DNA of 64,000 nt from Bacteroidales bacterium (lineage in GTDB: Bacteria; Bacteroidota; Bacteroidia; Bacteroidales; JAQUTK01): the NCBI GenBank assembly GCA_028709785.1, contig JAQUTK010000001.1, positions 147,845-211,844 of the forward strand. The letters are read 5' to 3'. Made by a program: the position numbers and the translations under genes. Under the pieces are notes generated by a model that was not told where the DNA came from, searched no databases, and saw only the letters and a list, made by a program, of their open reading frames with translations. Of this stretch, positions 11,359-49,792 are shown piece after piece (the stretch's first letter is position 1; each line of letters starts with the position of its first letter).

Positions 11359-12327
11359 ATGCAATATGTTGGAATAGAAACACAACAGAGAACGAATAAC
11401 TTTCGCTCTGTTGTGCTGCTTGTTCTTTTTCCCTGCCTGGTCATTCTTCTGACTTATCTGTTTTGCTTTCTGTTGACCATGCTGACGGTTCGACGTTATC
11501 CGGGTAACCCTCTTCCGATGGAAACAGCCAATGTCATGTTTGTGAATTATGCGCCGGTTGTCCTTTTGGGCGTATTAGTCTGGTTTTTTGTCGCCTATTT
11601 TGCCAACACATGGATTATAAACAACTCGACAGGAGCTGTCCCGTTAGAGCGCAAAGACAATAAAAGAGTCTACAATCTGGTCGAAAACCTTTGTATGAGC
11701 CGGGGAATGAAAATGCCCAAGGTGAATATTATCTATGATGACTCCCTAAATGCTTATGCAAGTGGCATCAATGAAAGTAGTTATACCGTGACCCTTTCCA
11801 AGGGAATTATAGAAAAGTTGGATGACAGTGAACTGGAGACTGTGATTGCACACGAACTGACTCATATCCGTAACAGGGATGTGCGGGTCTTGATTGTGTC
11901 GATTGTTTTTGTCGGATTGTTTTCCATGTTGGCGCAAATAGCGATTCGTTCCCTTTATTACTCATCATTGGGACGGAGTAACCGTAATGGCAAAGGTAGT
12001 GCCTTGCCGATACTCTTGATTGTGATAGCAGTGGCGGCGATAGGATTCTTTTTTGCCTCTTTAATGCGCTTTGCAATCTCGCGTAATAGGGAATTTATGG
12101 CGGATGCGGGTGCGGCCGAGATGACCAAAAACCCTCATGCTCTGGCTAGTGCGTTACGCAAGATTTCCAACGATCCCGAGATAGAAGCAGTGACCCGTAA
12201 CGATGTTGCTCAATTATTTATCGAGCATCCCCATACGAAAAGTGAAAGCTATTTCAGTGGATTGAGTGGCTTGTTTGCAACACACCCACCTATCAAGAAA
12301 AGAATAGAGATATTGGAGCAGTTTTGA
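11359..12327 (+). CDS. M48 family zinc metalloprotease (HtpX-like), membrane-bound
   Basis: HELTHIRNRD (HExxH) lies between TM segments, and the protein has a C-terminal ATHPPIKKRI motif typical of M48/HtpX. It forms an operon-like pair with lemA (12-nt gap). Confidence 0.8.
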   Translation: MQYVGIETQQRTNNFRSVVLLVLFPCLVILLTYLFCFLLTMLTVRRYPGNPLPMETANVMFVNYAPVVLLGVLVWFFVAYFANTWIINNSTGAVPLERKDNKRVYNLVENLCMSRGMKMPKVNIIYDDSLNAYASGINESSYTVTLSKGIIEKLDDSELETVIAHELTHIRNRDVRVLIVSIVFVGLFSMLAQIAIRSLYYSSLGRSNRNGKGSALPILLIVIAVAAIGFFFASLMRFAISRNREFMADAGAAEMTKNPHALASALRKISNDPEIEAVTRNDVAQLFIEHPHTKSESYFSGLSGLFATHPPIKKRIEILEQF

Positions 12328-17982: not shown

Positions 17983-18056
17983 GGCTGCGTAGCTCAACTG
18001 AATAGAGTAGCTGACTACGGATCAGCCGGTTGTGGGTTTGAATCCCTCCGCAGTCA
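17983..18056 (+). tRNA. tRNA-Arg (anticodon ACG)
   Basis: Hand-folded cloverleaf. Acceptor GGCTGCG/CGCAGTC (one G-U). D stem GCTC/GAGT. Anticodon stem GCTGA/TCAGC with loop CTACGGA (ACG). T stem GTGGG/CCCTC (one U-U). T loop TTTGAAT. Discriminator A; CCA is not encoded. 74 nt. Confidence 0.8.
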
Positions 18057-24093: not shown

Positions 24094-24101
24094 CATAGAA
24101 G

Positions 24102-24495
24102 TGGAGCTGAGGGGACTTGAACCCCTGTCCAAACGAGGAACTAATTCGCTTTCTACATGCTTATCTTCGCTTAAATTGTCGGGAAAACGCAAGACCGAAG
24201 CCACCATTGTAATCCGTATCCTTTTTATTTCGCTGCGAGACCAAGGCCTTCTCACAACTATCTCCGATATTTCTGCACCACCGGTTCGGACCGCTTCGGA
24301 ACCACAGCATCCGGGTGATGTCCCGTCCCCACACCCGTGCGGGGATTAAGCTTTATCTACTATACTTCGATTAAGCAGCAAGAGCGTAATTTGTTTCGCC
24401 AGTTAATTGTTTGAAGTCTGAGATTATAGTGCAAGCCAACGACGCACTGCATGCTTACAAACCACTTCTGCCCGCTGTCAAAACCAGTCAACCCC
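24102..24495 (-). ncRNA. ssrA: tmRNA (SsrA), tag peptide GETNYALAA
   Basis: The minus-strand 5' end GGGGTTGACTGGTTTTGACAGCGGG pairs with the 3' end ...GGACAGGGGTTCAAGTCCCCTCAGCTCCA, giving an Ala-type acceptor with G3-U70 and a T-arm GGGGTTCAAGTCCCC. The tag ORF GGCGAAACAAATTACGCTCTTGCTGCTTAA lies at 24371-24400. CCA is not encoded. Confidence 0.9.
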
Positions 24496-29849: not shown

Positions 29850-31886
29850 TTATTCCAACCCCATGGATTTAAAAGCCGCATCAATCGGATCTGAATAAAT
29901 GACAAGACTGAACTTTGATATCAGATCAGTGGGCACTTTGCCCAGTTGTGAGATATCCACTGCCGGAATTAGTATTTTTTTTGCGCCACTATCAACAGCA
30001 ACCTGAAGATACTCACACAAATTGTCCGACCCAATGATAGCTCCACCGATACTCATTGAACCAAGAACGGCTAATTGAGGAAGTAACGGTCTTTCCGTAA
30101 TAGACGACACGATGGACAAGAATATAGAAAGTTCCAACCCTTTTAAGTTTCCAATACCATTCAGATCCGTCGCTTTTATGTGAAACTCAAAATCACTGAA
30201 TTTAGCACTTTGTGTCACTCGATTTAAATTAGAACGAACATAGTTGACCGCTTCCTTTACTTCTTCTTTAATCGCTGTACCTGCACCAAAGCCTGTATCA
30301 CTAAGTTTGCCATTGCCCGGCATCCTTTGAATGTCCATTCGAAACAATCCTTTTTGTCCATTGTCTGAGTTTTGCCCTATCGCATAAACGACCCCTGCAG
30401 GCAAGTCTCCTTCAGGAATTAATGCTTTGCCACCACTTTCGGGAACCCCTACAAAATGTTCCTCGTTGTCTTCCAAATCAATATAGCTGAAATGCACATC
30501 GTAAAACTCCATGCCACCTATTTTCTTCAACTGTTCTTTCACTCTTCTTCTTCCGACCAGCGCATATTCCAGGCAACGCCGGATATCTTCTTTGGTGTAG
30601 ATCCCATCCGGAAATAATAGCTTCACCAATCCGCTGACAGTTCGTTTTACAGCAATGGTGTCCCTTTGGTTGAGATCTTTCCCCAGACGAAAGTACTGAC
30701 CGATCGCATCAGAGAAGTTATACTTGCGAAGCACTCTTAAACACTCTGCATAATAATCAGAAATGAAGCCATACGAATCAGTAAAAAACTCAGGGCGCAT
30801 TTTAGGAATCTCCCACCCGGGCAGGTAATGATGAAAACGGTCAAAGAAAGCAGCATCAATCATCTCTTTTGGAAATGGAGACAAGAGATGACTCGTCTTG
30901 ACCAGATTCTCAATAGAACCATTGATATTACCCACAAAGACCATGGAAGCATCCGCGTTGATACTCTCTTTCCCACGGCTGAAAGAACCGTTTGCCATAA
31001 AACCTTTCATAATATGAATGCCATCCTTGTCTTTCATATTGATACCGGCTACTTCGTCAAACGCAACCACATCCCAGAGACCCACCAAACCAACCGTACG
31101 CCTACCCATATTATAAAACAGATTAGCCACAGTCGTTTGACCTCCCGAAATAAGAATCGAATTGGGCGATATCTCATCATACACATACGATTTACCGGTG
31201 CCCCGTGGACCCAACTCACACATGTTATAATTCTTCTCCACAAAAGGGATCATGCGTGCCATGAGATGCCATTTCGTTTTCTCATCCAGGTTGACAGGTT
31301 TCATGCCAACACTCCGTAGAGAAACATCAATCCATTCATCCAATGTAAAATCTTTGCGATGGATCAGATAATCGTCAAAATTAGTCTCAGGCATCTGAAT
31401 AGGTTTCAGTTCGACGATCTTAAAAGGAGTTTCCTTTGAACATTCATCATACAAATACTCCATTGTAACAATACACCAGATACCGCCTGCTAGCAGTTTC
31501 TCATATTTTTTGATATATGAATCAGCGATAACAACGTTTCTCAGATTCACATTGGATAGAAGCCCTTCGTACCGATCCAACTTCTCGTTGAGTGTCACCG
31601 ATATTTTATCAATGATCTTGTAATGCCCCTTTTCCTTTATCTTTGATTTTACTTTCTCCGATTCATCAGGCCTCACATAGTTCTCAGCAAGTATCTGTTT
31701 TACTTTCTGAACGCCTTCATTGATAGCCGTCTCGTCATCGGTCGCGCAATACATGCCTAAAAGATATTCCAATACATACACAGGCACATTGGCACCTTCT
31801 TTAATGTGCTTCGTTAGATCCTTTCTGACCACTTTGCCGGCAAAGGAATGATTGAGTTTACTATCGAGATTGTCCATATACATCAA
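29850..31886 (-). CDS. brxL: BREX type 1 Lon-like protease BrxL
   Basis: 678 aa. N-terminus DSKLNHSFAGKVVRKDLTKHIKEGANVPVYVLEYLLGMYCA is characteristic of BrxL. P-loop GPRGTGKS. C-terminal Lon-protease-like region. It is the terminal gene of the brx operon. Confidence 0.85.
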   Translation of the reverse strand: MMYMDNLDSKLNHSFAGKVVRKDLTKHIKEGANVPVYVLEYLLGMYCATDDETAINEGVQKVKQILAENYVRPDESEKVKSKIKEKGHYKIIDKISVTLNEKLDRYEGLLSNVNLRNVVIADSYIKKYEKLLAGGIWCIVTMEYLYDECSKETPFKIVELKPIQMPETNFDDYLIHRKDFTLDEWIDVSLRSVGMKPVNLDEKTKWHLMARMIPFVEKNYNMCELGPRGTGKSYVYDEISPNSILISGGQTTVANLFYNMGRRTVGLVGLWDVVAFDEVAGINMKDKDGIHIMKGFMANGSFSRGKESINADASMVFVGNINGSIENLVKTSHLLSPFPKEMIDAAFFDRFHHYLPGWEIPKMRPEFFTDSYGFISDYYAECLRVLRKYNFSDAIGQYFRLGKDLNQRDTIAVKRTVSGLVKLLFPDGIYTKEDIRRCLEYALVGRRRVKEQLKKIGGMEFYDVHFSYIDLEDNEEHFVGVPESGGKALIPEGDLPAGVVYAIGQNSDNGQKGLFRMDIQRMPGNGKLSDTGFGAGTAIKEEVKEAVNYVRSNLNRVTQSAKFSDFEFHIKATDLNGIGNLKGLELSIFLSIVSSITERPLLPQLAVLGSMSIGGAIIGSDNLCEYLQVAVDSGAKKILIPAVDISQLGKVPTDLISKFSLVIYSDPIDAAFKSMGLE

Positions 31887-31934: not shown

Positions 31935-34445
31935 TCAAGAATCAAACTCACTACTAAAAGCGATCATCATGCGGAAGGTATAGCTTTTATAGGTTTTGTA
32001 TTGGTTTGTGCCTTCGATTTGTTCCTCCATTTTCAGATAAACATCCTGTCCGTTATGCTTTGACGCTTCCCCTTTTAAAAGAAAAGTCTGCCGTTTTTCC
32101 CTTGCTAAAGCATCGTTCTCTGAACTATTGAAGCTCAGTGTGACTACGTCCGAGATTAACTGATCAGCTTCGGTATAAAAAGCAGCTCTTAGTTGACGTG
32201 GAAGAACTTTGTCAGCGATGGGCTGTTTCTGATAAAAGCTCACCGCAAAACTATTAGAGGTTATGTTTGACGAACCACTGATAATATCAATGTCAACCTG
32301 TTCGATATTGCTTTTTCGAGCTTTGTTTACCTCCAATACCGGAACGACAATTTCCTGTAAGCTCGCTCCCCCATGCACAAAGCGGCTTCCAGCCCCCGAT
32401 ATTCTTATTCTGTTGATCGATTTAGGAATGAGCACCTCTGTGTCGTCATTCAAACCAACATCCGCACCCTTCCATTTCTTCACGGAGTCATTACCTTGCA
32501 GATTCTTACCAATCACAAAACGGCGGTTGCATTTATACACCTCACCCACAGGAGTGAAATCCGTAAAGTCGGTTTCATCCAAGCGATTTTGTTGATAGAT
32601 ATATCCATGGTCAGAGGTAATAATGATATTGTTACCGTTCATATTCGTGATATGTTTCAGGAGTCGAAGAAAATTATTCAATTCATCTTCAGTAGATTCA
32701 AACACCTTATTCTCAGAAGTCTTATCATCCCCGGTTTTGTCAATGACATTGCTGTAGATGTAGATCACATTATAGGGTTTGATAAAGTCACGCCCCTCCG
32801 TACTAGCTTTCATTTTGAGAAACTCTTCCGCTGTTATTGCTATACTTCCGGCATACTTCTTTTGCAAGATCTTCGTGCGGTTTGGCGTGCCTTGCGTGCT
32901 TACTCCATCCGCAAAGACAGTCTCCGTCTTGTCGTTGTAAGTCAATGCGCTTTGTGGAAGTAAAGAAGCCATTCCTAATTGCGTGTAGGAGGGTAGGCAG
33001 CCCAGCACAGGATGAAGGATTGCCGTATATTTATCTTCCTGCAAAATCAATTCACGTAATTCGGCCGCTGATTCGAAGCGGAAAGCATCCGATATGATAA
33101 CGAAGATACGTTTCTCACTTTTCACATAGGGTTCAATCCAATAGCTATAGAATTCGCTTTGGCTTCTCACATTGTCTATTTTCCAGGAGTTCATCTTATC
33201 GACAGCCTTTTGCCAGTTGTCGCCCAGTTTGAGCAAGAATGAGTTGCCATAGGCTTTTTCAATTTGAAGAGTCAGATCTTTGAGGATGTCGCCATGTTCG
33301 CCATGCAGACTTTTAACAATGTATTTTCGATACAAGCGGTCGATTGTATTCCACTGCTTTTCGTAATTCTCAAAGCCCGATTCCGGCGACTTGACCGTTA
33401 CGTCCACTTTGCGTATTTCATCCAACAAAAGTGAGGCATTACTCAATGCGCCATAGATATTCTCATAGCTATTGTAAAAGAACTTCACTTTCCGTTTATC
33501 GATCCATTCCTGAATGATACGATTGGCGAGCGTATTCTTTGTAATACTATCCCGAAGGCTGACAATGATTTTCTTATCAATGATAGAAAAAGCATCCGAT
33601 TCAATCAAGTTCTCCACATCTGTTTTCTGAACAGCACTTTCGATGTTTAGCTCCGACTCCAATACCCCGCTCCATTCTTTAAAAAGAGGACCGGCCTTGG
33701 AGTTTTCCTTCCACCGACTGATGAAGAGATACGCATCTTTATTTAAAAGCGGATTGCCACCGGGGATCGTCCGTTTAAAACTATCGTGTATGAGGTTAAC
33801 CAGAAGATCTTTAATGGTTGGTTTATCCGATTTATAGTTGTATTTCTTCTCAATGGTTTTCCAGAGGAAATCAGACAATTTGAACTTCTCTATCGCTTTG
33901 TATTTATCTTGTTTGCCCTTTAGTTTCTCCTCAAACAAAGCGTATAAGACCTTTTCCCATTCCGGTTCACAAGCACATATAGTGCAAAGCATTTTCAAAC
34001 GAATGATGCTTTCCCTGTCTGTTTTCTCCAATAATTCTTTCAGGGCTGAAACACGGTATTGATTTGCAAAGAACTCTTCATGCTTCTGGATCAACTCTTT
34101 ATACTCTTGCGGTAAGCCCAATTCCTGAAGATATAAAGACGAAGATTCTGTATGAAACTCGTAATTAGACACCAACAAATCCAACAGCCAGTTTTCATTA
34201 TCAGCAGGTTTTGCCGCAGGTTGATAAAGTAGAAACCGTTGTTTAGGCTGTTCGACTACTATTCTGTGTTTGAGCGTAAATTCATTGTTTTCTATTTTAA
34301 GCTTTTCAATACCGGAGATCTGAATATCCTCAAATAACCCCGTCATTTCGGCTTTATCATCGTACCAAAACACTAAGCGGTGCTGTTGGAAAATCTTTTC
34401 CAACGCAGACTGTACTTTCTCATTTATGGCAAATAGATTGGACAT
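31935..34445 (-). CDS. pglZ: BREX alkaline-phosphatase-superfamily protein PglZ
   Basis: 836 aa. N-terminal RLVFWYDDKAEM and the PglZ-domain metal site IIITSDHGY. Its position between pglX and brxL fits. Confidence 0.85.
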   Translation of the reverse strand: MSNLFAINEKVQSALEKIFQQHRLVFWYDDKAEMTGLFEDIQISGIEKLKIENNEFTLKHRIVVEQPKQRFLLYQPAAKPADNENWLLDLLVSNYEFHTESSSLYLQELGLPQEYKELIQKHEEFFANQYRVSALKELLEKTDRESIIRLKMLCTICACEPEWEKVLYALFEEKLKGKQDKYKAIEKFKLSDFLWKTIEKKYNYKSDKPTIKDLLVNLIHDSFKRTIPGGNPLLNKDAYLFISRWKENSKAGPLFKEWSGVLESELNIESAVQKTDVENLIESDAFSIIDKKIIVSLRDSITKNTLANRIIQEWIDKRKVKFFYNSYENIYGALSNASLLLDEIRKVDVTVKSPESGFENYEKQWNTIDRLYRKYIVKSLHGEHGDILKDLTLQIEKAYGNSFLLKLGDNWQKAVDKMNSWKIDNVRSQSEFYSYWIEPYVKSEKRIFVIISDAFRFESAAELRELILQEDKYTAILHPVLGCLPSYTQLGMASLLPQSALTYNDKTETVFADGVSTQGTPNRTKILQKKYAGSIAITAEEFLKMKASTEGRDFIKPYNVIYIYSNVIDKTGDDKTSENKVFESTEDELNNFLRLLKHITNMNGNNIIITSDHGYIYQQNRLDETDFTDFTPVGEVYKCNRRFVIGKNLQGNDSVKKWKGADVGLNDDTEVLIPKSINRIRISGAGSRFVHGGASLQEIVVPVLEVNKARKSNIEQVDIDIISGSSNITSNSFAVSFYQKQPIADKVLPRQLRAAFYTEADQLISDVVTLSFNSSENDALAREKRQTFLLKGEASKHNGQDVYLKMEEQIEGTNQYKTYKSYTFRMMIAFSSEFDS

Positions 34446-34520
34446 GGTAAGTTGTTTATTTTAGTATCTTGCAAAGAGATTCATTTATAATGACTTGCAT
34501 TGTAATTGTGCGTTAATTAT

Positions 34521-34556
34521 GTAACAAATATAGCAACAATTTGTTACAGTTTTTTT
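34521..34556 (+). terminator. hairpin plus T-run oriented antisense to the BREX operon, in the pglX-pglZ spacer
   Basis: GTAACAAAT (34521-34529) / ATTTGTTAC (34539-34547), followed on the + strand by AGTTTTTTT. On the coding (minus) strand the hairpin has no T-tail. Confidence 0.35.
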
Positions 34557-34557
34557 A

Positions 34558-37500: not shown

Positions 37501-37989
37501 TTCGGTGTAATCGCTGATATGCTCAAACATATAGGGCATAGCGCTGTACCACTGGTTGCACGCAGCCACGATCAGCATTTTGTACGCTTCAGTATGTGCG
37601 TCGGCTGACGCGGTGCGTCCGTCCAAGAGATCGTTGAGGCGTTGGCGGTCGAGGTGCAACTCGGCTTCGATATGTCCAGCCAAAGCGTTTTGCAATATTT
37701 CAGGGTTAGACATGCCGGGCAAAGGAGTGACCACTTTGGGTAGCGTGTAGCCATTGGCATCCATGAAACGCAATGCCATCAGACGGTTGAACCAGGTGTA
37801 AGCCACTGTTTCAATCACCTGTTCGCGCCCCATTTGTTTAATCGTTGCGTTGAGCTGTGCTATTTCCGCCTGTTTACCACGTAGCTCTGCTGTATCGTTG
37901 GTAAGTACGAAATCAAGTTTGCGGGAGACCTGGTCAATCAGTTTGATGCGGGCTTGTGCAGCAAAGACTTTGAGGATGTTGGTATTCAT
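34558..37989 (-). CDS. pglX: BREX type 1 N6-adenine DNA methyltransferase PglX
   Basis: 1143 aa. Catalytic VVTNPPYMG (NPPY = aa 457-460, nt 36610-36621). SAM-binding LDPCQGSGH. Size and position between brxC and pglZ fit. Confidence 0.9.
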   Translation of the reverse strand: MNTNILKVFAAQARIKLIDQVSRKLDFVLTNDTAELRGKQAEIAQLNATIKQMGREQVIETVAYTWFNRLMALRFMDANGYTLPKVVTPLPGMSNPEILQNALAGHIEAELHLDRQRLNDLLDGRTASADAHTEAYKMLIVAACNQWYSAMPYMFEHISDYTELLLPDDLLSDYSIVADIRNGMTDEDCQQEEILGWLYQFYISDKKDQVFKALGKNVKISAENIPAATQLFTPRWIVRYMVENTLGKLWLTFKPNSKLRDHMPYYIETPEGNVPSPLPEGIKGITDITFLDPCQGSGHVLVYAFDLFAKIYEEEGYNTNEIPSLIFQHNLFGIDIDPRAAQLAAFALTMKARNYYSRFLRKPIQPHVIALVNVSEEILEQSITLPIVVKSKKIEDYKDLSLYLLTQANNLGSLIQINQEEVNAIQVQTGSMWQEQQNILKRQAEFLCSKYHCVVTNPPYMGSSGMNAELKCFVEKNFRKSKSDLMACFMERCLAYNPIQGKTAMINQHSWMFLSSYEGLRSFLIEHTQIESMLHLGPRAFPEIGGEVVQNAAFVLGNYKPINKGVYIRLTDFGNAQLKDDKTLEAIQNPDCGWFYTANQNDFEKIPGSPIGYWLSKKSFESFESTKISDFYIVRNGISTGDNVRYLRLWHEVPFINNNWKPCNKGGLFRRWYGNNEFVVFWENNGEQIKTSLDEKGRIKARLGGVEFSFCEGIEMSRISSSKSAFRYSQKGFIYESSTNDIYKKHATQDLKNLLGYLNTKVVDGFLSLMNPTINIMPEDIRKLPLFSDIEEMGMAPNVDQNILISKQDWDSRETSWDFQQNELIKQQAESIKKAFESYKKEWSDKFYQLHHNEEELNRQFIEIYGLQDELTPDVPLEEITILQEEGKIVDGQLEIQAAPVMLQLISYAVGCMFGRYSLDKPGLILANQGDTVQDYLKEVQAPTYQPDEDNIIPVLDGEWFTDDIVGRFREFMKVAFSADQLNENIGFIEDNIAAKDIRRYFVKDFYNDHIKRYKKRPIYWMFSSPKGHFKALIYMHRYQPDTCSKLLNDYLQPYISKIESARQTQIMLSVREDLSPREKVAASKEIDNLRKMIDDCKVYERTLFTLATQKISIDLDDGVKVNYQKLKEVLVPIKGLEKEEDE

Positions 37990-38002
37990 TTATTGGTTTC
38001 AA

Positions 38003-38641
38003 TTATGGCCGTTGGATTAAATTCTTCTTAAGATACCAAACTACAATGCCGTTATACGGTTTATAATCCCCATGAATATCAATATTATCCCATTCATTTA
38101 TTATCTTTTGAATACTACTTTTTTTCCAAGGATTAGTTTTGTTCAGAATTGAAGTTATAGCAGCTATAACTTCCTTTCGATTTCTCTTTAGTAGTTTGTT
38201 ATTCAGATTAAGAATAGAATTAATTTCATGATTCCAAGTAGGATTAGTTGATTTAATCTTACCGTCTGAAGTATCGTATTCTATTGTTTGTACAAAATGG
38301 TCTTCGAATATTGGAATTGTTATATCCTTATCGCCCTTCAATTTGTCGCAATGAAAGTTGTTGTTAATGGCTCCAGGACAACAAATAACCATATTCTTAT
38401 AGTCGAGTTGTAATTCTTCATGATTCTCTTGACTTAGGACATGGTCAATTCTGGTTGTCTCATTACTATTTTTGTCTTTAATAGGTATTCTACGCATACA
38501 ATAAGCGCAAATATTTCCTTGATCTTTTAATAGTGCATCAGCTAATTCAGGAATTCGTTGATATTTGACACCAGGAGTTAGTCTATATTCTGTCCATTCA
38601 CGCGGCTCATTGCCTTTATTTATCTTCCTCATTGTCGTCAA
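38003..38641 (-). CDS. HNH-type nuclease, PtuB-like (Septu-like module, nuclease component)
   Basis: 212 aa. Cys/His pattern CAYC...RIDHVLSQ...ICCPG...FHCDKLKG typical of the small HNH proteins that partner ABC-type ATPases. Its start overlaps the upstream ATPase gene by 26 nt. Very low GC (17/60 in sample 38161-38220). Confidence 0.6.
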   Translation of the reverse strand: MTTMRKINKGNEPREWTEYRLTPGVKYQRIPELADALLKDQGNICAYCMRRIPIKDKNSNETTRIDHVLSQENHEELQLDYKNMVICCPGAINNNFHCDKLKGDKDITIPIFEDHFVQTIEYDTSDGKIKSTNPTWNHEINSILNLNNKLLKRNRKEVIAAITSILNKTNPWKKSSIQKIINEWDNIDIHGDYKPYNGIVVWYLKKNLIQRP

Positions 38642-39899
38642 TTATCTGAAAGTTCAACATGGTTTCTGCTCTGATCAGCTCCGGCAGACTGTCACCAAAC
38701 CTTTGTTGCATATCTATCAAGATCGATCTTGCTTCATTTCCTTGATTATTATCAATCAGAGAAAATAAGTTTTTTAATTCATCATCTACCTCTTTCGACC
38801 GGGGAGTCGTATCAAGCGCAACATCAATAATTGTTGAAGCATCCATTCCGTAGAGCTCAACCGGAATTGCACTGTAACCGTTTTCGTTGGAATAGTCAAG
38901 TTTGTAAATAATGTTGTCGTCGTCGGATTTGATGCTTGTCATTACCATAGGCGCATGAGAAGTAACAATAAAGCGAAGTTCAGGAAATGCGAAACGCAGC
39001 CCCTGTATAACTACCGATTGTAAAGTTGGGTGTAAATGTAAATCAACTTCATCAATCAAAACAGTACCGGTTGTTTTGAGACAAGCCTCTTCGCCATAAA
39101 TGCCTTGATTCAGTAGTGCACAACGGAAAGCCAAGTCGGTCACCATATTTACCAATCTTTTATAGCCATCAGATAAGTTATTGGAGCTTACTTCTCTGCC
39201 ATCCGTAAAGTGATAATATACTTTACTTTGATTATGACGTATTTCCATATCGTTAATAATGCCACAACCATCATTGCCCAATGCTCGCTGAATGGCTTGT
39301 TGCACGCAAGATAATTCAATTTTTCCCTTACCTCCTTCTTTGAGTACCAACAGTCTTTTTGTCCAATACGGAAAGAAACCATTGCCTTGCAAACACTCAT
39401 AATACCCAAAAGAAGGTTTGTGATAATACTCTGTAAAAGGAGTCATAGATAATTTGCGGACACTGTGTATATCTTCGGTTGAAAAGCTGGCAAAAAGAGG
39501 TAGTGGCTTTACTTGAACATCGCCTTTGAAAAGGGATTCTTGCAATTCTCTTGCATAATCTGAAATTGGGTAAAGTGGCGTTCTTTGTGTACTACCTTTT
39601 TCTGTGTTTAATACCAACTGAGCGGATTTGCCTAATAAATCGAAGTTGACAGTAATTGGAGAATCATTTAAAAAGCCCGTACTCGACATTTTTTCGGTAA
39701 AGTCGTATTTGGATAATCCTACAAACCGTGTATTATCATCACTAAATCCTGTAAAGAAAGAATTGAGTGCATAGCTTATGGCTTTAATAATGGTTGTTTT
39801 TCCGCTTGAATTGTCACCAATCAGCAGATTTGTTTTGGACTTAAATGATATTTTCAGATACTCATAGCATTTGAAGTTAATCAATTCAATGTTAGTCAT
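38616..39899 (-). CDS. ABC/SMC-like AAA ATPase, PtuA-like (Septu-like module, ATPase component)
   Basis: 427 aa. Walker A LLIGDNSSGKTT near the N-terminus, signature-like LSDGYKR, Walker B VLIDEVDLHLHP, H-loop VTSH. Confidence 0.65.
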   Translation of the reverse strand: MTNIELINFKCYEYLKISFKSKTNLLIGDNSSGKTTIIKAISYALNSFFTGFSDDNTRFVGLSKYDFTEKMSSTGFLNDSPITVNFDLLGKSAQLVLNTEKGSTQRTPLYPISDYARELQESLFKGDVQVKPLPLFASFSTEDIHSVRKLSMTPFTEYYHKPSFGYYECLQGNGFFPYWTKRLLVLKEGGKGKIELSCVQQAIQRALGNDGCGIINDMEIRHNQSKVYYHFTDGREVSSNNLSDGYKRLVNMVTDLAFRCALLNQGIYGEEACLKTTGTVLIDEVDLHLHPTLQSVVIQGLRFAFPELRFIVTSHAPMVMTSIKSDDDNIIYKLDYSNENGYSAIPVELYGMDASTIIDVALDTTPRSKEVDDELKNLFSLIDNNQGNEARSILIDMQQRFGDSLPELIRAETMLNFQIIDDNEEDK

Positions 39900-39949
39900 A
39901 TTCTTTCTTGTTTTATGTGGATTAACGATCTATTGAATGAAACTAATTT

Positions 39950-42900
39950 TTACAAAGATATTCTTTTATTCTCGTCTATGATACGGAAATACTGTTCTCT
40001 TAGTGCGGCAAGATACTCTTCCACATCCTGTTTCGTTTCCAAAGAAGGCTTTTTGAAGTTGATCTTCACACTGTCTTTACGCACAAAGGTTATTTTGGGC
40101 ATTGGAGGCTGCACATTTGTCAAAGTCCCCGTCATGTCATTAGCAGGTCGGGGTGAGGGCAGAGGTGGATTAGCCAATGAGATCATCTTTTCCAATTGCC
40201 GTTGATAGACCTCATTGTTGGTATTGTTGGCTTTCGAACGGATATTCCCGATAAAACGTTCCAACTCTATTTCTTTGGTCGCTTTTTCGAAAGGAGCAAG
40301 GATGTCAGCTTGTTGCTTTTCGCTTAACTTTGCAAAATCGGCAAACAGCTTCAGCTTGTTGATGGTCTCTGTAATAGACTCTTTCGCGCTGACTCTCTCC
40401 ACTCGTTGTCTTTCGGTCACTTCCAGCTGAATAGTATCCAACGCTGTTTTTGCCTCCTGCATCAACACACCTTTGTAAGGAGCCTTGCTGGCAGCCACAG
40501 CTCTTAATGCCGTCAAACTGTCGCTGCCGATGTAATCGAAGTTCGCATTGTTGCTTTCGAGATACGAGAGAACCTTTTCGAAAATGGTACGCTGCGCACC
40601 GTTCATAAACTTCTTGGTGGCATCGAGTATCTCTTCTTTGTCGTCCAATAAAGGATCCTGATACTGATTTAAAGCCGTAAAGAAATAGAGAGGTTCCTTT
40701 TCAGCCAATGATTTCAAGCGATTAATCGGTTCGCCCAGCGACTCTAAAAATGTAAATCTACTGCGAAGATGATACATCTCGCTCAGGTCAGTGATTTCTT
40801 TCTCCAGCCGTTGTTTGAAAAGCCGTGCTATCTCTTTGGGTTCATTGCCCAGATTTGGTTCGTTGAAATACTCCTGATAGAAGTTTTTCAGCTTTTGGAT
40901 AGAGGTAACCGGAATCTCTTCTTCCAATTCAATGATGGTCGTGCTGTACTGATTGTTGCGCTGTAGAGCCTCCAATACATTACGATCGGAAAGCGTGTTT
41001 GAATCCTGTTTGAGACTGATTTTATTTCGTTTATACAGTTTGGCGATGACACACAATACAGCCGTCTGATACCAACCGTAAGGGCGGGCGTTGAAAGTAT
41101 CCAGCAGCACTTTAATCGTTGTCCGCTCATGATTAGCCTTATTGCGTTTAATGCGATTCAGTATCTCTATCTCTACTTCTTGCAGATCATCTTTAAACAA
41201 GACATCATCCTGACTTTGCATCAGTTTGACCAAAAGAGCTTCGCTATAATCTGTCGTGAGCATCTTCAGGTTGGTGTAAATGGTCTTGATAAGCTGCTGT
41301 AAACCCAGTGTGATTTTAGTCTTGGGATCTTTGCTCCCCATGTCGGTAAGCTCTGAACCATTGATAAACATCGCCGCATCGGTTAAGCTCTCTTTTAATT
41401 GCGCCAAAATAGCAACCTTTCTTACTGCGTTTTGCGTCGCTTTATCCTGAATGATTTGTCGTTTGGCACTATCTATGGAAGGAGAATTGGTCAGTTGGAT
41501 GTATTTCTCCGTTTTCTTGATTAGTTTCAATTCATCGAAGAGTCTGCTGTCTTCCGGTAAAAAAACAATCAAATCGTTGGGGCGACCCACCGAAAACATG
41601 TGGATATTGGAAGATGTAATTGAGTTTGCATTGAAAGGAGTGATGAAATTGAGATAGAAATCTTTTTCACGCCCCAACAAATTATCATCTAATTTCTTCC
41701 CAAACTCATACGCTTGGTTGTTTGTGTCTAACTTTACTTTTCCATCTCTGATAATCTCATCAAAGAGGATGGTCACTAGTAATTCACTCGGAGCATTGGG
41801 CGCAATCTCCGTGCTTTTTATTTCATTCTCGACATCCTTCTCCTGATTTGTGAGGTATTCATACCTGTCAGTGGCAGTACGTTGTATGTAGGTCTGACTC
41901 TCCAGGAGGTTTAAAGCTTCCTTCACTTTCTTATGAAATGCCGCCAGATCAATATCGAAGTGGGGCAAGAGCAAGATGGCGAGATTGCCTGCTGAAGCAT
42001 GAAATCCTTTTACATATTTGACCAGAAACAGCGCTTTGAGTGCTTCCTTAGCGAGATCGGAATCAATGCTTCGTTCAGACTGAAGAATGTCACTTTGGAT
42101 GTTGCTTTGAAGCACGTCTTTGATACCCTCATACATGTGAGCAAAAGAGACAATTTCAGTAACGTCTTTTTCGGAGTACACCTTAGCGACTTGCTGAAAC
42201 ACACCAAGCATCGAACGTTCGCCGACGGACTGTTGGCTTCCGATAAATGCGTTATGGTCTGAGAGCGACTTGATCGCCGCCTGAAACAAATCGAACTGAT
42301 ACGGTAGAAATGGATATGTATTTACAAAATGGTCGGCATCCCGATAGACTTGATATTGACGCGATTCATCATTGAATTTCAAGATCGTCTTGATCGTATT
42401 CTGTTCTTTGTTGTAACTATTAGCAAGAAACTTCGCGGACTCTTCGTTCTTTAGCAACAACCGTTTCTGAATGACCTCATCGGCATTGGCACTGGTCAGC
42501 GGTATTTTGACAGCAAACCGCCCCTGAATGCGTGAAAAGTCGTGCGCTTGTTTGGCTCCTAACTCTCCGATAGTTGCCCCTAAGTCGTTTTGAGAAGTCA
42601 CAATAAGGAAGGACTGACCTTGTGTTTTAGTAGCCAGAGTCTCGGCGATGGTCTGCAAACTAAGCATCAACTTCACATTCTCAGCGATAAACTGACCGAC
42701 CTCATCCACGCAAAAGACAAGCCGGAAGCCCGGTTGTTGAGCTTGGATATAGTGTGTAACCAAGTCGCTAAAGCCTTCGATATCCAGTTTGTAATTATTG
42801 ATGACATTGTCTATGTAACGGTTTGCATCCTCGGTGCTGATTGATTTGATCTCTGCATAGATCTCGGCTAACTCATGTTGGTTCAAAAAGATGGACTCAC

Positions 42901-43499: not shown

Positions 43500-44111
43500 T
43501 CAGATTTTATATTCGTTCAGGTTATGCGCTCTGTAATAGTTATTATCAATAATCCGGTCGAAAAGATTCAATGAAATGTTGTTGTAAGTACCTGGAAAGA
43601 ACATTACGAGGGGAATGTCGCCTACCAGCGTTTGAAGGTTGTTTAATATCGTATGCGAACGGACAAACGGAAATGCAGCACCGATACCTGTCAGCAAAAG
43701 GATCTTCGCGTTTGAGTCAGCCAATCGTCTATGGATTTCCGGAATGATAGCCGTGTCAATATGAAGCGGACCACTGAGGATTCTCAAAAGACGTTGCTTA
43801 TTCGTCCATGACTGCTCTTGTGCTACAATCTTGTCAAAGATCTCTTCCCGTTTGAGAATGTCCATACATAACAGATACAGGTTCACTTCCAGAATTTCTA
43901 TACCTTCGCTTTGCAGTCTTTTCAGTAAAGACTCCGTACCAGTTTCCACTTCCGATTGTTTATTTACCGGAAAGGAGTGAATAAAAAAAGGTAATTCACC
44001 GCCTAAGCCTTCTTTTTTAAGGAAACGAGGGCTTGAGAGAATCTTATACAGATTGTTGAACTGCTCGGGCGTGTTGTATTTCAGACTAGTTGACATCTTT
44101 TGATTTTTCAA
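43500..44111 (-). CDS. brxB: BREX protein BrxB (DUF1788 family)
   Basis: 203 aa. Its stop is 1 nt from the brxC start. Size and position match BrxB, and the FPGxY-type C-terminal motif (MFFPGTYN) is as I recall for DUF1788. Confidence 0.7.
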   Translation of the reverse strand: MKNQKMSTSLKYNTPEQFNNLYKILSSPRFLKKEGLGGELPFFIHSFPVNKQSEVETGTESLLKRLQSEGIEILEVNLYLLCMDILKREEIFDKIVAQEQSWTNKQRLLRILSGPLHIDTAIIPEIHRRLADSNAKILLLTGIGAAFPFVRSHTILNNLQTLVGDIPLVMFFPGTYNNISLNLFDRIIDNNYYRAHNLNEYKI

Positions 44112-44727
44112 GGATTGCTTTTACTTCTTGATTGGAACAAAGGAATGCTGCAAGGTAAGCAGGGTCATCTTCAAGGATTACTTGTGCTGCCCGGTTGCTT
44201 AAACTGGGCTTCACGAGAAAGCCGCATTTGGCAGATGAAAGAAGGTCAACCTGTTCTAAGATCTTAAAGACGACCTGTTTGACTTTTTTACCGGTAAGTT
44301 CGGTTATCTTTTCGATTTCGGGGTGTTGGAAGCTTTTAGAATCAACGAATCGTTTATAGTCACTGTCTAAGAGCATCCTATCAAAGATCAAATACTTGTT
44401 GAGCAATATCTCTACAATAAATTCATAGATAAAAGGATAAGTTTTGACGATGGAGAGTAAAATCATCCACTTTGTCTCCTCATAGCTGCCTTCAACCATT
44501 AATTGAAGTTGGTCGGGTGTGAGTAAAGCAATCCTTTTCCTGATCTCGGAAAATTCTCTTTTGAAAGTGACTTGTTTGACTTTGTTCAAGTGGTTGTTAT
44601 CAAACAAATCAGCCTGTACTGATTTCCAGTCTTTTAGATTGTAATAGGCTTCAGCTATCGTCCGTGTCTCAGTAATCAACGCGGATGCTCCGGTAAAGGA
44701 AAAGGAATATTTAGTTGTGTTTACCAC
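44086..44727 (-). CDS. brxA: BREX protein BrxA (DUF1819 family)
   Basis: 213 aa with a GTG start. First gene of the operon, overlapping brxB by 26 nt. The N-terminal YSFSFTGASALITETRTIAEAY resembles BrxA. Confidence 0.7.
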   Translation of the reverse strand: MVNTTKYSFSFTGASALITETRTIAEAYYNLKDWKSVQADLFDNNHLNKVKQVTFKREFSEIRKRIALLTPDQLQLMVEGSYEETKWMILLSIVKTYPFIYEFIVEILLNKYLIFDRMLLDSDYKRFVDSKSFQHPEIEKITELTGKKVKQVVFKILEQVDLLSSAKCGFLVKPSLSNRAAQVILEDDPAYLAAFLCSNQEVKAILEKSKDVN

Positions 44728-44801: not shown

Positions 44802-44809
44802 CAAAGTTA
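44802..44809 (-). promoter_or_regulatory. candidate BREX operon -7 promoter box (TAACTTTG on the minus strand)
   Basis: The + strand CAAAGTTA is TAACTTTG on the minus strand, 75 nt upstream of the brxA start. Confidence 0.4.
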
Positions 44810-45216: not shown

Positions 45217-45363
45217 TCTCCTCTTATAAAAACCATGAGCTATAATCGTTTATCACTATGTCGTTTGTTGCCTAAGAACCAACCCGAAACAAAAGTTCAA
45301 AGATCAGGGAAGCAAATTAATCCAAACCAGAAGATAAAGTCAAGCAATAAGGACGCAAAAGTT

Positions 45364-45435
45364 ATATCAAGCCCTGATACAATCGTATCAAAGCCTGATA
45401 CAATTATTTCAGGCACTGATATGATTATTTCAGGC
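45364..45435 (+). promoter_or_regulatory. phased direct repeats upstream of the HU-like gene (candidate operator/iteron-like array)
   Basis: The CTGATA core recurs at 45374, 45395 and 45416, an exact 21-bp period. TATCAA(G/A)(C)CCTGATACAAT occurs twice (45364, 45386) and ATTATTTCAGGC occurs twice (45403, 45424). Confidence 0.5.
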
Positions 45436-46713: not shown

Positions 46714-47580
46714 ATGATGGAAAAACTAAAAATAAGCCAATATAAAACGACATTCGACTCCATTGCCCATTACATCGAGAACGAACATAAAGAACAGGTC
46801 GAAATTTGGTTTGCAAGAGAATTGCAGACAATCTTAGGCTATGCACGTTGGGAAAACTTTGTTGTAGCCATAAACCGTGCTGTCGAATCGTGCAAAACGC
46901 AGGGTGTCAATGTGGATGATCATTTTCGTGAGGTCACGAAAATGATCGAGATAGGGAAAGGTGGTAAGCGTGAAGTAGAAGATTACATGCTTACTCGTTT
47001 TGCTTGCTACTTGATAGCTCAAAATGGCGACCCTAAAAAAGAAGAAATTGCCTTTGCTCAGAGCTATTTTGCCATTCAAACCCGAAAAATTGAACTTATT
47101 GAAGAACGTATAAACCTGAAATCCCGAATGGAAACCCGCGATAAGTTGCGGGCTGCCGAAAAACAACTCTCACAAAATATTTACGAAAGAGGCGTTGACG
47201 ATAGAGGTTTTGGACGTATCCGTTCGAAAGGCGACACCGCTTTGTTTGGCGGATACACCACCGAGTATATGAAACACCGACTCGGCGTTAAATCTACCCG
47301 TCCGCTTGCCGACTTTTTGCCAACGCTTACCATAGCCGCAAAGAACTTGGCAACCGAAATGACCAACTACAATGTGAACGAAAAAGACTTGCAGGGCGAG
47401 TCGTCCATAACCACCGAGCATGTACAAAACAATATAACCGTGCGCGAAATGTTAGGCAAACGAGGTATAAAACCCGAAGAATTGCCACCTGCTGAAGATA
47501 TTAAAAAGATGGAACGCCGTGTAGCAACCGACGAAAAGAAATTAGAACAATCAACCAAGAAGCTCCCAAAAAATGAATAA
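46714..47580 (+). CDS. dinD: DNA damage-inducible protein D homolog
   Basis: 288 aa. It is colinear with E. coli DinD as I recall it (W.AREL...LGY..W.NF...I.RA..SC...G....DHF.E...M..IG.G.KR...D..L.R.ACYL.AQNGDP.K..IA.AQ.YFAIQTR). It is commonly embedded in Bacteroides type I R-M loci. Confidence 0.75.
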   Translation: MMEKLKISQYKTTFDSIAHYIENEHKEQVEIWFARELQTILGYARWENFVVAINRAVESCKTQGVNVDDHFREVTKMIEIGKGGKREVEDYMLTRFACYLIAQNGDPKKEEIAFAQSYFAIQTRKIELIEERINLKSRMETRDKLRAAEKQLSQNIYERGVDDRGFGRIRSKGDTALFGGYTTEYMKHRLGVKSTRPLADFLPTLTIAAKNLATEMTNYNVNEKDLQGESSITTEHVQNNITVREMLGKRGIKPEELPPAEDIKKMERRVATDEKKLEQSTKKLPKNE

Positions 47581-47701: not shown

Positions 47702-49792
47702 ATGAATATTGAAAATCTGAATCCCAGTCAACGGAAAGCTGTTGAATATAATGGAAAACATTTACTTGTGCTTGCAGGAGCAGGTACTGGAAAAACTCAT
47801 ACTATTATAAGTCGTGCAGCTTATCTGATTGCAAATGGAGTCCAAGGTAAAAGGATTCAAATACTATCATTTACACGAAAATCAGCAAGTGAAATTGTAG
47901 AGCGTGTAAACTCGATGTTTCGTGAAAGTAAAGATGCAAAGCAGTTGAATGGGTCTACTTTTCACGCATGGTGTATGAATATAATAAAAACTAATCCAAA
48001 GGTTTTTAAGGTAAGTGATTACACTGTCATTGACAGAGATGACCAATTAGGGGTATTTAAACTTATATGTGGCAGAAATCCAAAGGTTATTGATGAAACA
48101 AGATTAAACGCAAAGACACTATTGGATTTATACTCTTTTGCAAGAAATACTCGCAAGAATATTACAGAAACAGTTAGATTTAAATGCTTGAACAATTCAA
48201 AAGATGGTAAAGCAGATAAGGAAATCGAGAAAATAAAGCCTTATCTGGTTTCTGTCTTTTCAACCTATGAATCAAAAAAAAGAGAAAGGAAATACCTTGA
48301 TTATGATGATATTTTAAATGTGGTTGCAATTGGATTAAAAAACAATAAGGAAGCTAGGGATTATATTACATCTCAATATGACCATATATTAGTAGATGAA
48401 ATGCAGGACACCAACCCTCTGCAGTGGGAACTTCTAAGCTCCTTTCAGGAAAAGTGTTGCTTATTTTGTGTAGGTGACGATGCTCAATCGATATATGCAT
48501 TTAGAGGTGCTGATTTTACAAACGTTCATAAATTTAACGAAAGGGTTCCTGATTCAGAAATATATCGTTTGGAAGACAATTATCGTTCAACTCAAGAGAT
48601 ACTAGATTTATCAAATTGGCTTCTAAAACAATCCCCATTATGTTACAATAAGAAACTTAATGCAACAAGAGGATCAGGTGAATTGCCTGTTATAATGAAT
48701 TTTGAAAATGAATGGAGAGAAGCAGATTGGGTAGCTTGCGATATATTAGATAATTTCACAAAGGATGGATTAGAATATAATAATCATCTTGTTTTAGTTA
48801 GGTCTGTCTATGCTGGTAGGTCAATTGAACGTTCTTTATTAGAGAAAAAGATTCCTTATGTTGTATTTGGTGGTGTAGGACTTATGGCATCTGCCCACAT
48901 TAGGGATGTTGCATCTGCACTGAGAATTATAGCAAACATTTATGATGAGATTGCTTGGATGAGATATTTACAATTGTGGGAAAAAATTGGAGATGTAACA
49001 GCCTCAAATTTAATAACAGAGCTTTTAGAATTATCTGACATTGATGAATGTCTCGTATTATTGAAAAAGAAAAATTTAAAAGACCAAGGTTTAGTAGATA
49101 CGTTATCTGCAATAAAAGGACTTAATAATAAACCCTCAGATGCCATACGCATAGCATTAGCCATTATGGAATCTCGGTTAGCTATTAATTATAAAGGCGA
49201 ATGGGAAAAGAAGAGAAAACCAGATTTTCAAGTACTAATGCAGCTAGCAGAAAAGCATGGTTCGATTAGCGAGTTTATTGCCGAATATGTATTAGATCCA
49301 CAATTGAATGAGGCTAGTGCTTTCGGTTCAGACTCAAAAGAGGCAGTTACAATTTCTACTATTCATTCGGCAAAAGGGCTGGAAGCTAAGGTGTGTTATG
49401 TCATAAACGTTTCCGTTGGCGCATATCCAAGCACAAGGTCGATAGATGAAGGAGAAGATGCAGTCGAAGAAGAACGTCGTGTGCTTTATGTAGCACTAAC
49501 TAGAGCAAAAGATGAATTGTACGTGACTAGAATTATTACTAAAATTCAGGATTATAGTCAATCAAGAATTCAACAAATAAATTCAGAATGTGAAGGTGTT
49601 TATTCATCTCAAATTATAGAACAACAAGATGATACAGATTCAGAAAAAAAATCAACTGTATATTTCTTAGATGAATTACCATCTGAATTAGTCATTGATA
49701 AAATATCTGAACAAACTAGATTTGAGATTTCAACAAAAACATATACTGGAAAACCTATTGCAGAAAATGATTTTGGAATGGACTTAAGCTAA
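47702..49792 (+). CDS. UvrD/Rep/PcrA-family superfamily-1 helicase, low-GC cassette
   Basis: 696 aa with intact SF1 motifs: Q-region LNPSQRKAV, I AGAGTGKT, II VDEMQDTNPLQ, III VGDDAQSIYAFRGA, IV EDNYRSTQEIL, V TIHSAKGLE, VI YVALTRAKDELYV. A ~95-aa acidic C-terminal tail of unknown function follows. GC is 21/60 in sample 48001-48060. Confidence 0.8.
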   Translation: MNIENLNPSQRKAVEYNGKHLLVLAGAGTGKTHTIISRAAYLIANGVQGKRIQILSFTRKSASEIVERVNSMFRESKDAKQLNGSTFHAWCMNIIKTNPKVFKVSDYTVIDRDDQLGVFKLICGRNPKVIDETRLNAKTLLDLYSFARNTRKNITETVRFKCLNNSKDGKADKEIEKIKPYLVSVFSTYESKKRERKYLDYDDILNVVAIGLKNNKEARDYITSQYDHILVDEMQDTNPLQWELLSSFQEKCCLFCVGDDAQSIYAFRGADFTNVHKFNERVPDSEIYRLEDNYRSTQEILDLSNWLLKQSPLCYNKKLNATRGSGELPVIMNFENEWREADWVACDILDNFTKDGLEYNNHLVLVRSVYAGRSIERSLLEKKIPYVVFGGVGLMASAHIRDVASALRIIANIYDEIAWMRYLQLWEKIGDVTASNLITELLELSDIDECLVLLKKKNLKDQGLVDTLSAIKGLNNKPSDAIRIALAIMESRLAINYKGEWEKKRKPDFQVLMQLAEKHGSISEFIAEYVLDPQLNEASAFGSDSKEAVTISTIHSAKGLEAKVCYVINVSVGAYPSTRSIDEGEDAVEEERRVLYVALTRAKDELYVTRIITKIQDYSQSRIQQINSECEGVYSSQIIEQQDDTDSEKKSTVYFLDELPSELVIDKISEQTRFEISTKTYTGKPIAENDFGMDLS

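Follow-up and report, generated by a model that had tools for sequence, protein, structure and literature searches.

A Septu-type PtuAB gene pair at the brxC/pglX junction of a Bacteroidales BREX-1 operon

We analysed a 64,000-nt stretch of DNA from a Bacteroidales bacterium (assembly GCA_028709785.1, contig JAQUTK010000001.1, positions 147,845 to 211,844 of the forward strand; hereafter the window). Between brxC and pglX of a bacteriophage exclusion (BREX) operon it carries two genes, one for an ABC-type ATPase and one for an HNH nuclease. Coordinates are positions in the window unless a related locus is named, and both the operon and the gene pair lie on the minus strand. Judged by profile searches and predicted structures, the pair is an ordinary type I Septu system consisting of the ATPase PtuA and the HNH nuclease PtuB, and comparison with related loci indicates that it is a secondary insertion into the BREX-1 operon. 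In our assessment ptuAB is probably an autonomous type I Septu cargo that provides an independent second layer of defence and is expressed together with BREX.

The ATPase matched the PADLOC PtuA profile PDLC00272 with 546 bits, residues 1-417 of the query covering positions 1-442 of the 444 in the profile, and it also matched the Pfam families AAA_15, AAA_21 and SMC_N. Its closest solved relative is PtuA of the E. coli Septu system (PDB 8ee4, E=7e-40). The AlphaFold2 (AF2) model of the ATPase, with a predicted local distance difference test (pLDDT) score of 80, had 8eea and 8ee4 as its top Foldseek matches (8eea_C, E=7e-28), ahead of retron PtuA. The HNH protein aligned with positions 1-211 of the 215 in the PADLOC PtuB profile PDLC00322 (221 bits). 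Its score against NCBIfam TIGR02646 was 45.2, just under the cut-off of 52.15, and the NCBIfam PtuB match was also under its cut-off; the AF2 model (pLDDT 87) gave significant Foldseek E-values to PtuB chains only (8eea_G, TM score 0.72). A preliminary description of the sequence had proposed a Septu-like or retron-effector-like pair from the motifs GDNSSGKTT, LSDGYKR, VLIDEVDLHLHP and TSH in the ATPase and CAYC, DHV, CC and HCDK in the HNH protein. All of these motifs were found, and the profile scores and solved structures bear out the Septu assignment. The functional motifs of PtuA comprise Walker A at G28-T36 (with K34), the signature motif at L242-G245, Walker B at D283-E284 and the H-loop at H315, and residues K34, S243-D244-G245, D283-E284 and H315 were invariant across 23 PtuA homologues. 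Equally, the H64-N80-H94 catalytic motif of PtuB and residues C42, C45, C84, C85 and C95 were invariant across 26 homologues. The four gene-level hallmarks of type I Septu were all found: a full-length PtuA, intact ATPase motifs, an H-N-H PtuB, and adjacent, co-oriented genes with ptuA first.

Several other assignments were rejected. A PADLOC profile search found that all neighbours of the pair are BREX genes and that there is no reverse transcriptase among them, and the Rfam matches in the window were one tmRNA and one tRNA, with no retron RNA, which agrees with the earlier remark that neither a reverse transcriptase nor msr/msd lies nearby. Because the NCBIfam retron scores were also under their cut-offs, we rejected a retron. 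PARIS was rejected because AriA profiles reached only ~77 bits, versus 546 for PtuA, and because the partner is an HNH protein, not a Toprim/DUF4435 protein (AriB). Gabija was rejected because the AriA profiles scored far below PtuA and there is no Toprim domain. The suggestion that the ATPase is unusually short and possibly a distinct subtype was not borne out either: the profile is covered almost completely and, of ~1,800 PtuA homologues retrieved, the best 120 are mostly 420-440 aa, so that 427 aa is a normal length for a large Bacteroidota subfamily.

The BREX-1 operon is complete, each of its six core genes matching its own PADLOC profile essentially end to end, and its gene order on the minus strand is brxA, brxB, brxC, ptuA, ptuB, pglX, pglZ, brxL (Table 1). 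Both open reading frames were found, in the same orientation, at the junction where they had been described. The spacers also measured as claimed: the brxC stop codon at 39950-39952 is followed by 50 nt before the ptuA ATG at 39899, and the ptuB stop codon at 38003-38005 by 13 nt before the pglX ATG at 37989. The gene boundary within the pair required revision. The longest ptuB reading frame (38003-38641, minus strand) does encode 212 aa from a TTG start, as reported, but the ATG at 38632 is in line with the start of 24 of 25 PtuB homologues, which open with MRKI, and it also coincides with position 1 of the PADLOC PtuB profile. This ATG is therefore the likely start, which gives a product of 209 aa and an overlap with ptuA of 17 nt, not 26. 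The pair is poorer in GC than its flanks, as the preliminary description had noted from samples. The GC content is 0.375 for ptuA and 0.322 for ptuB (0.346 and 0.257 at third codon positions, GC3), versus 0.429 for brxC and 0.418 for pglX (GC3 0.499 and 0.438), which places the pair in the 2nd percentile among the 1.9-kb segments of the window.

The survey of related BREX loci that the preliminary description had proposed showed the pair to be dispensable. A scan of species-representative genomes with BrxC returned only 10 loci, so the frequencies are rough; in nine of these, all Bacteroidota BREX-1 loci with a BrxC 67-79% identical to that of the window, the junction was visible. In three of the nine, ptuAB occupies the brxC/pglX junction (a Chitinophagaceae genome, a Cyclobacteriaceae genome, and a Bacteroidia metagenome-assembled genome in which a Schlafen-type gene precedes ptuAB). 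Three have an empty junction, two with the brxC stop and pglX start overlapping as TAATG and one with a 33-nt gap. At the remaining three the cargo differs: one has a HipA kinase pair, and two have a conserved unknown protein of ~240 aa. All six related species-level loci that lack ptuAB keep the brxA-brxL core genes. A role of ptuAB as a core component of BREX-1 is thereby ruled out, and the junction is a general cargo site. The earlier reading of the pair as a secondary insertion gains support from the empty junctions in relatives, from the GC3 contrast, and from the discordance in similarity between cassette and backbone described below.

The pair recurs at the exact brxC/pglX junction in about 20 distinct loci. 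A metagenome scan with the PtuA profile yielded 80 loci, 9 of them embedded between brxC and pglX and ~46 located elsewhere, the rest being too short to judge. The genes next to ~35 non-BREX relatives vary, most being of housekeeping or mobile-element type, and one stand-alone PtuAB pair, 66% identical, sits between an ABC transporter and housekeeping genes; from these two observations we argue that ptuAB is likely to be autonomous. The closest relatives of the PtuA and PtuB of the window are nevertheless all embedded at the brxC/pglX junction. Neighbour-joining placed the PtuA of the window in a clade of 13 distinct sequences, all embedded, with 97% bootstrap support, and embedded PtuA sequences outside this clade were interleaved with non-embedded ones. 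The embedded loci also follow two junction designs. In the group of the window, an AT-rich spacer of 50-70 nt separates brxC from ptuA; in the second group, ptuA begins 1-4 nt past the brxC stop codon and the ptuB frame reaches the pglX start. The two designs, together with the tree, indicate several independent gains or losses of ptuAB.

We used the closest locus (L001) as the reference for a sliding comparison of DNA identity along the operon, which revealed a mosaic (Table 1). Identity within ptuA drops at about 38800, and the break is mirrored at the protein level: identity to L001 is 97% over PtuA residues 1-360, 55% over residues 361-427 and 51% for PtuB. Over the divergent 3' segment the window is closer to other embedded cassettes, the PtuB proteins of three of which (L096, L101 and L102) are 76-77% identical to that of the window. 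The recombination breakpoint coincides with the start of three C-terminal helices predicted in the AF2 model of PtuA at residues 369-383, 387-401 and 406-423, and DNA identity indicates that these helices recombine together with ptuB. In solved retron complexes, PtuA's C-terminal extension clamps PtuB (PMC12819146). Given the position of the breakpoint and the clamping role of this region, the interacting parts, the PtuA C-terminal helices and PtuB, appear to have been exchanged as one unit.

Cassette and backbone are discordant beyond this pair of loci. In one locus (L098), PtuA residues 1-360 are 88% identical to those of the window although the last 190 residues of BrxC are only 57% identical. 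PtuA divergence correlated weakly with BrxC divergence (Spearman 0.39) and PtuB divergence did not (0.07), which argues against simple vertical co-inheritance of PtuA with BrxC. The GC content of the cassette is ~0.33-0.38 in every locus of the clade, whatever the GC content of brxC, and the contrast in the window arises from a BREX backbone that is richer in GC than most. Low GC is therefore only partly valid as proof of recent foreign origin. A transposon-like insertion was also rejected, since the borders carry no target-site duplications or terminal inverted repeats and only short repeats at chance level. The mosaic identity, the discordance between cassette and backbone, the constant GC content and the missing transposon repeats together suggest that homologous recombination, acting through the conserved 3' end of brxC and 5' end of pglX, exchanges cassettes between BREX loci. 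A second mosaic region was seen in the centre of pglX (37450-35500, minus strand), which has 42-65% DNA identity to L001 while both ends of the gene have 83-90%; this central part is presumably the target-recognition region, which suggests a swap of methylation specificity.

For transcription signals we used the Bacteroidota-type -7 motif TAnnTTTG in a pattern search with an enrichment test at gene starts. The motif was found 10-110 nt upstream of 11 of the 35 genes in the window, including brxA and pglZ (4.9% expected by chance). A sigma-70 promoter scan was dropped because it gave 36 matches versus 38 expected and because that consensus does not apply to Bacteroidota. The statement that neither a hairpin terminator nor a promoter box accompanies the pair holds in its first half: no terminator-like site was detected on the minus strand between 40000 and 37900. 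Its second half does not, as a TAnnTTTG-type box, TATCTTTG, lies 54 nt before ptuA. Since the motif is enriched upstream of genes in the window and present before ptuA, an internal promoter is possible. This box is shared by 6 of 7 loci with the junction type of the window, but it also spells the last three codons of BrxC (I-S-L), so that coding sequence explains its presence as well and the signal is inseparable from coding constraint. Co-transcription of ptuAB with BREX, as the preliminary description had assumed, is plausible from the shared orientation and the lack of a terminator.

In type I Septu, a PtuA oligomer binds PtuB through PtuA's C-terminal extension in a 6:2 complex. As an autonomous cargo, the pair would be co-transcribed with BREX when the polymerase reads through from the brxA promoter, and perhaps also be driven by the -7 box in the last brxC codons. 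On the model of the homologous E. coli Septu, an oligomer of PtuA would bind PtuB via its C-terminal helices and, as long as ATP is bound, hold the nuclease inactive. The PtuB nuclease would be freed by a phage cue and would then cut host tRNA (tRNA-Tyr in E. coli Septu), nick DNA, or do both. Growth of the infected cell would stop, and phages that escape or inhibit BREX would be caught by abortive infection. Once cloned, E. coli Septu provides defence by itself, depends on its Walker A, Walker B and H-N-H residues, and shows tRNA-Tyr cleavage on infection and abortive-infection behaviour (PMC13096335). Published accounts of stand-alone Septu describe a PtuA hexamer in complex with PtuB, which PtuA binds by its C-terminal extension, together with DNA nicking and inhibition by ATP (PMC12819146; Li et al., 2024, via 10.1101/2024.10.26.620412). 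The E. coli system is reportedly sensitised by a phage tail fibre (PMC12819146, PMC13096335).

Some points weigh against an autonomous cargo that works in this way. A defence role for this locus, as for Bacteroidota Septu at large, is predicted from homology. The trigger and target would be extrapolated from E. coli proteins that are ~25% (PtuA) and ~16% (PtuB) identical, and the behaviour of the ATPase may be unpredictable because its signature motif carries a Tyr where retron PtuA has Gln and E. coli Septu has Leu. Furthermore, the BREX residence of the PtuA clade of the window, 13 of 13 members, could reflect dependence on BREX.

This last point leads to the alternative of a Septu tied to BREX, in which PtuA would sense an anti-BREX factor (for example an Ocr-like DNA mimic binding PglX) or an inhibited BREX system and would free PtuB in response, much as PARIS senses Ocr and PrrC guards EcoprrI. 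Besides the shared junction of all 13 clade members, it is favoured by the full operon integration of the second group, with ptuA 1-4 nt after the brxC stop codon and the ptuB frame running up to pglX, and by the relatedness of PtuA and AriA, the PARIS ATPase, as ABC ATPases. A rationale of this kind has been proposed for BREX-embedded PARIS and similar pairs (10.1101/2024.01.29.577857; PMC11341690; also section 35 of PMC12839542). We nonetheless consider such sensing unlikely. The PtuA tree mixes stand-alone relatives with embedded ones, unrelated cargo (HipA, a Schlafen-type protein, an unknown protein) occupies the same junction, and no sequence feature specific to embedded PtuA was found. 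In addition, E. coli Septu works alone and is, by report, sensitised by the tail fibre (PMC12819146, PMC13096335), and PARIS in the Salmonella BREX locus showed no Ocr-triggered or BREX-linked activity (PMC11341690). We also doubt that the 13-member clade is a dedicated BREX guard, specialised in detecting phage anti-BREX proteins or BREX inactivation and confined in its spread to flank-mediated cassette exchange between BREX loci; if it were, it would be a Bacteroidota counterpart of PARIS sensing Ocr, with the PtuA C-terminal helices and PtuB as exchangeable effector modules.

It is very unlikely that PtuAB acts as a physical auxiliary nuclease recruited by BrxC or PglX to cut DNA recognised by BREX. 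The genes of the two largest BREX proteins do flank the pair, which is tightly spaced and oriented as they are, and embedded nucleases are termed 'backup/auxiliary effectors' in section 35 of a survey of BREX loci (PMC12839542). However, the 6 of 9 related species-level loci without ptuAB keep all core genes, PtuAB cassettes move independently of the BrxC backbone, and Septu is self-sufficient in E. coli (PMC13096335). We give hardly any credence to a selfish or decaying passenger, either a toxin-like addiction cassette or an inactive pair that adds nothing to defence: deregulated PtuAB is toxic (PMC12819146) and one relative (L019) has a Schlafen-type fragment in place of ptuB, so embedded cassettes can decay, but both reading frames of the window are intact, all catalytic and zinc-binding residues are conserved, and the clade is kept across many loci with full-length genes.

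Table 1. Coordinates of the BREX-1 operon, the embedded ptuAB cassette, and related features. Window coordinates unless prefixed with a locus; L001 is the closest locus.
Feature	Coordinates	Strand	Basis or remark
Candidate Bacteroidota -7 box of the BREX operon, TAACTTTG	44802..44809	-	75 nt upstream of brxA; pattern search, inferred
brxA	44086..44727	-	PADLOC BrxA PDLC02452, 245 bits, profile 2-203 of 204
brxB	43500..44111	-	PADLOC BrxB PDLC02463, 201 bits
brxC, 1182 aa	39950..43498	-	PADLOC BrxC PDLC02479, 1477 bits, full length; identical to NCBI MDD4821065.1 of a Bacteroidales metagenome-assembled genome
Candidate internal -7 box, TATCTTTG	39953..39960 (39960-39953)	-	54 nt upstream of ptuA ATG; pattern search
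AT-rich 50-nt spacer brxC-ptuA	39900..39949	-	GC 0.24; left border of insert
ptuA, Septu ABC-type ATPase, 427 aa	38616..39899	-	ATG at 39899; PADLOC, PDB, Foldseek
ptuA 3' part, residues ~374-427	38616..38780	-	Three C-terminal helices; breakpoint near 38780
ptuB, Septu HNH nuclease, 209 aa	38003..38632	-	From ATG at 38632; PADLOC, AF2/Foldseek
13-nt spacer ptuB-pglX	37990..38002	-	Right border of insert
pglX methyltransferase, 1143 aa	34558..37989	-	PADLOC PglX PDLC02521, 1347 bits
pglZ	31935..34445	-	PADLOC PglZ PDLC02547, 948 bits
brxL	29850..31886	-	PADLOC BrxL PDLC02506, 1074 bits
Identity segment, brxA-brxC			DNA identity to L001 about 0.70-0.85 (about 0.79)
Identity segment, last ~50 nt of brxC through ptuA codon ~373			DNA identity to L001 0.89-0.95
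Identity segment, rest of ptuA and all of ptuB			DNA identity to L001 0.47-0.63
Identity segment, pglX 5' end			DNA identity to L001 0.83-0.90
Cargo at pglX/pglZ in relatives	L001:15320-20339, L002:16131-19712, L099:14007-15572, L101:14299-18636
Conserved protein of ~235-265 aa in relatives	L002:11942-12679, L018:2191-2991, L023:2568-3317, L008:13534-14238
Conserved protein of ~235-265 aa, further loci	L012:13534-14280, L099:9692-10432, L101:9676-10413

The brxC/pglX junction of relatives holds further genes of interest. A conserved protein of ~235-265 aa, absent from the window, is encoded directly upstream of pglX at this junction, whether or not ptuAB is present; the five aligned copies share 44-76% identity with the one in L002. 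Neither Pfam nor PADLOC gave a match for this protein, and it may be an uncharacterised BREX-embedded gene. At L019:240-2590, a Schlafen-type C-terminal fragment (HATPase_c_4 and Fic-like_C) takes the place of ptuB after ptuA, as if an embedded cassette had decayed or been rearranged. Upstream of ptuA, tandem AATTACG-type repeats (aattacgaattacgg...) occur at L010:~10198-10280 and ~11900-12017 and at L019:1-230, and these same two loci also carry a Schlafen-type gene at the junction. Related loci have a second cargo site at the pglX/pglZ junction, which holds PDDEXK_13/REase-ARP, GmrSD, Schlafen/AlbA_2, or PDC-M59A plus Fic. In the window this junction is a gap of 112 nt only (34446-34557), which contains a -7-like box, TATATTTG, at 34532-34525 on the minus strand; an alignment of the gap gave no clear sign for or against its being the scar of a lost cargo.

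Upstream of the operon and divergent from it, the window encodes a Bro-N protein (46714-47580, plus strand; PADLOC candidate PDC-S13, 388 bits) and a UvrD-type helicase (47702-49792, plus strand) that matches GajB over its full length with 244 bits and has a low GC content of 0.336; no GajA was found beside this helicase. The adjoining Bro-N and GajB-like genes therefore place BREX in a small defence island. Two tandem copies of an imperfect palindrome (TTGTATCAGGnCTTGATA) occur at 45362-45403 (minus strand), ~640 nt upstream of brxA; the terminator scan flagged them as a 19-bp hairpin, and a regulator might bind there. A tmRNA gene (24099-24495, minus strand; Rfam, 125 bits) and a tRNA gene (17983-18056, plus strand), both ordinary chromosomal markers, are found ~5 kb past the brxL end of the operon.

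Defence systems embedded in BREX have been published (10.1101/2024.01.29.577857; PMC12839542). Section 35 of a 2026 survey of BREX diversity describes HNH nucleases linked to OLD-type ABC ATPases, paired in BREX loci, as a recurrent 'backup effector' module (PMC12839542). Payne et al. (10.1101/2024.01.29.577857) described Septu embedded in Hma, found embedded systems in the same orientation in 96.7% of cases, and discussed co-regulation and anti-anti-defence as rationales, and Went et al. (PMC11341690) quantified cargo between pglX and pglZ. Beyond this work, our comparisons would add the exact brxC/pglX junction, a BREX-resident Septu lineage, the apparent exchange of PtuB together with the PtuA C-terminal helices, and the probable recombination of embedded cassettes among BREX loci. 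The main present gain is one of annotation, as NCBI labels the ATPase only 'AAA family ATPase'. The locus also offers a clean natural example of layered immunity, with a predicted abortive-infection nuclease pair inside a methylation-based exclusion system, in gut-type Bacteroidales, in which neither Septu nor BREX is known to have been studied experimentally. Should the lineage depend on BREX or sense anti-BREX factors, it would be a testable model for cooperation between embedded systems.

Among known systems, stand-alone Septu of E. coli (PtuAB; PDB 8EE4/8EE7/8EEA/8SUX; Septu Ec-B88) has the same two-gene architecture of ABC ATPase and HNH nuclease, shares the Walker A and B, signature, H-loop and H-N-H residues with the window pair, and has C-terminal PtuA helices of a PtuB-binding kind, which those predicted in the window PtuA resemble. 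Identity in structural alignments is ~25% for PtuA and ~16% for PtuB, the E. coli PtuA is longer (465 aa versus 427 aa), the signature residue that is Leu in E. coli and Gln in retron PtuA is Tyr in the window (LSDGYKR), and the window pair is embedded in a Bacteroidales BREX operon, unlike its stand-alone E. coli counterpart. The PtuAB effectors of type I-A retrons (Ec78/Eco7, Ec83; PDB 9nnb, 9e90 and others) are homologous in both subunits. However, the NCBIfam retron profiles gave 180 bits for the window PtuA (cut-off 500; NF041760, residues 196-416 only) and 87 bits for PtuB (cut-off 150), retron PtuA (~550 aa, with insertions that bind multicopy single-stranded DNA and the reverse transcriptase) exceeds the window PtuA by ~120 aa, and the reverse transcriptase and non-coding RNA of type I-A retrons are both missing from the window locus.

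As in the window, a second system, abortive-type or type IV, is nested within BREX-1 in the case of PARIS (AriAB) in Salmonella D23580 and of BrxU (GmrSD) in pEFER (PMC11341690), and AriA is an ABC ATPase related to PtuA. The nuclease partner is the Toprim-type AriB or GmrSD in these enterobacterial cases and an HNH protein here, and that survey covered genes between pglX and pglZ in Enterobacteria whereas the present insert is at brxC/pglX. The OLD-type ABC-ATPase and HNH pair in section 35 of PMC12839542 belongs to the same architecture class and the same host system; the main text of that article does not name the pair Septu and contains no analysis of junction, lineage or cassette recombination. 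The Septu embedded in Hma (Payne et al.) is, like the pair described here, a defence system nested in the same orientation within a methylation-based system. There the host system is Hma and only 0.7% of Septu systems are so embedded, whereas here one Septu clade is wholly resident in BREX.

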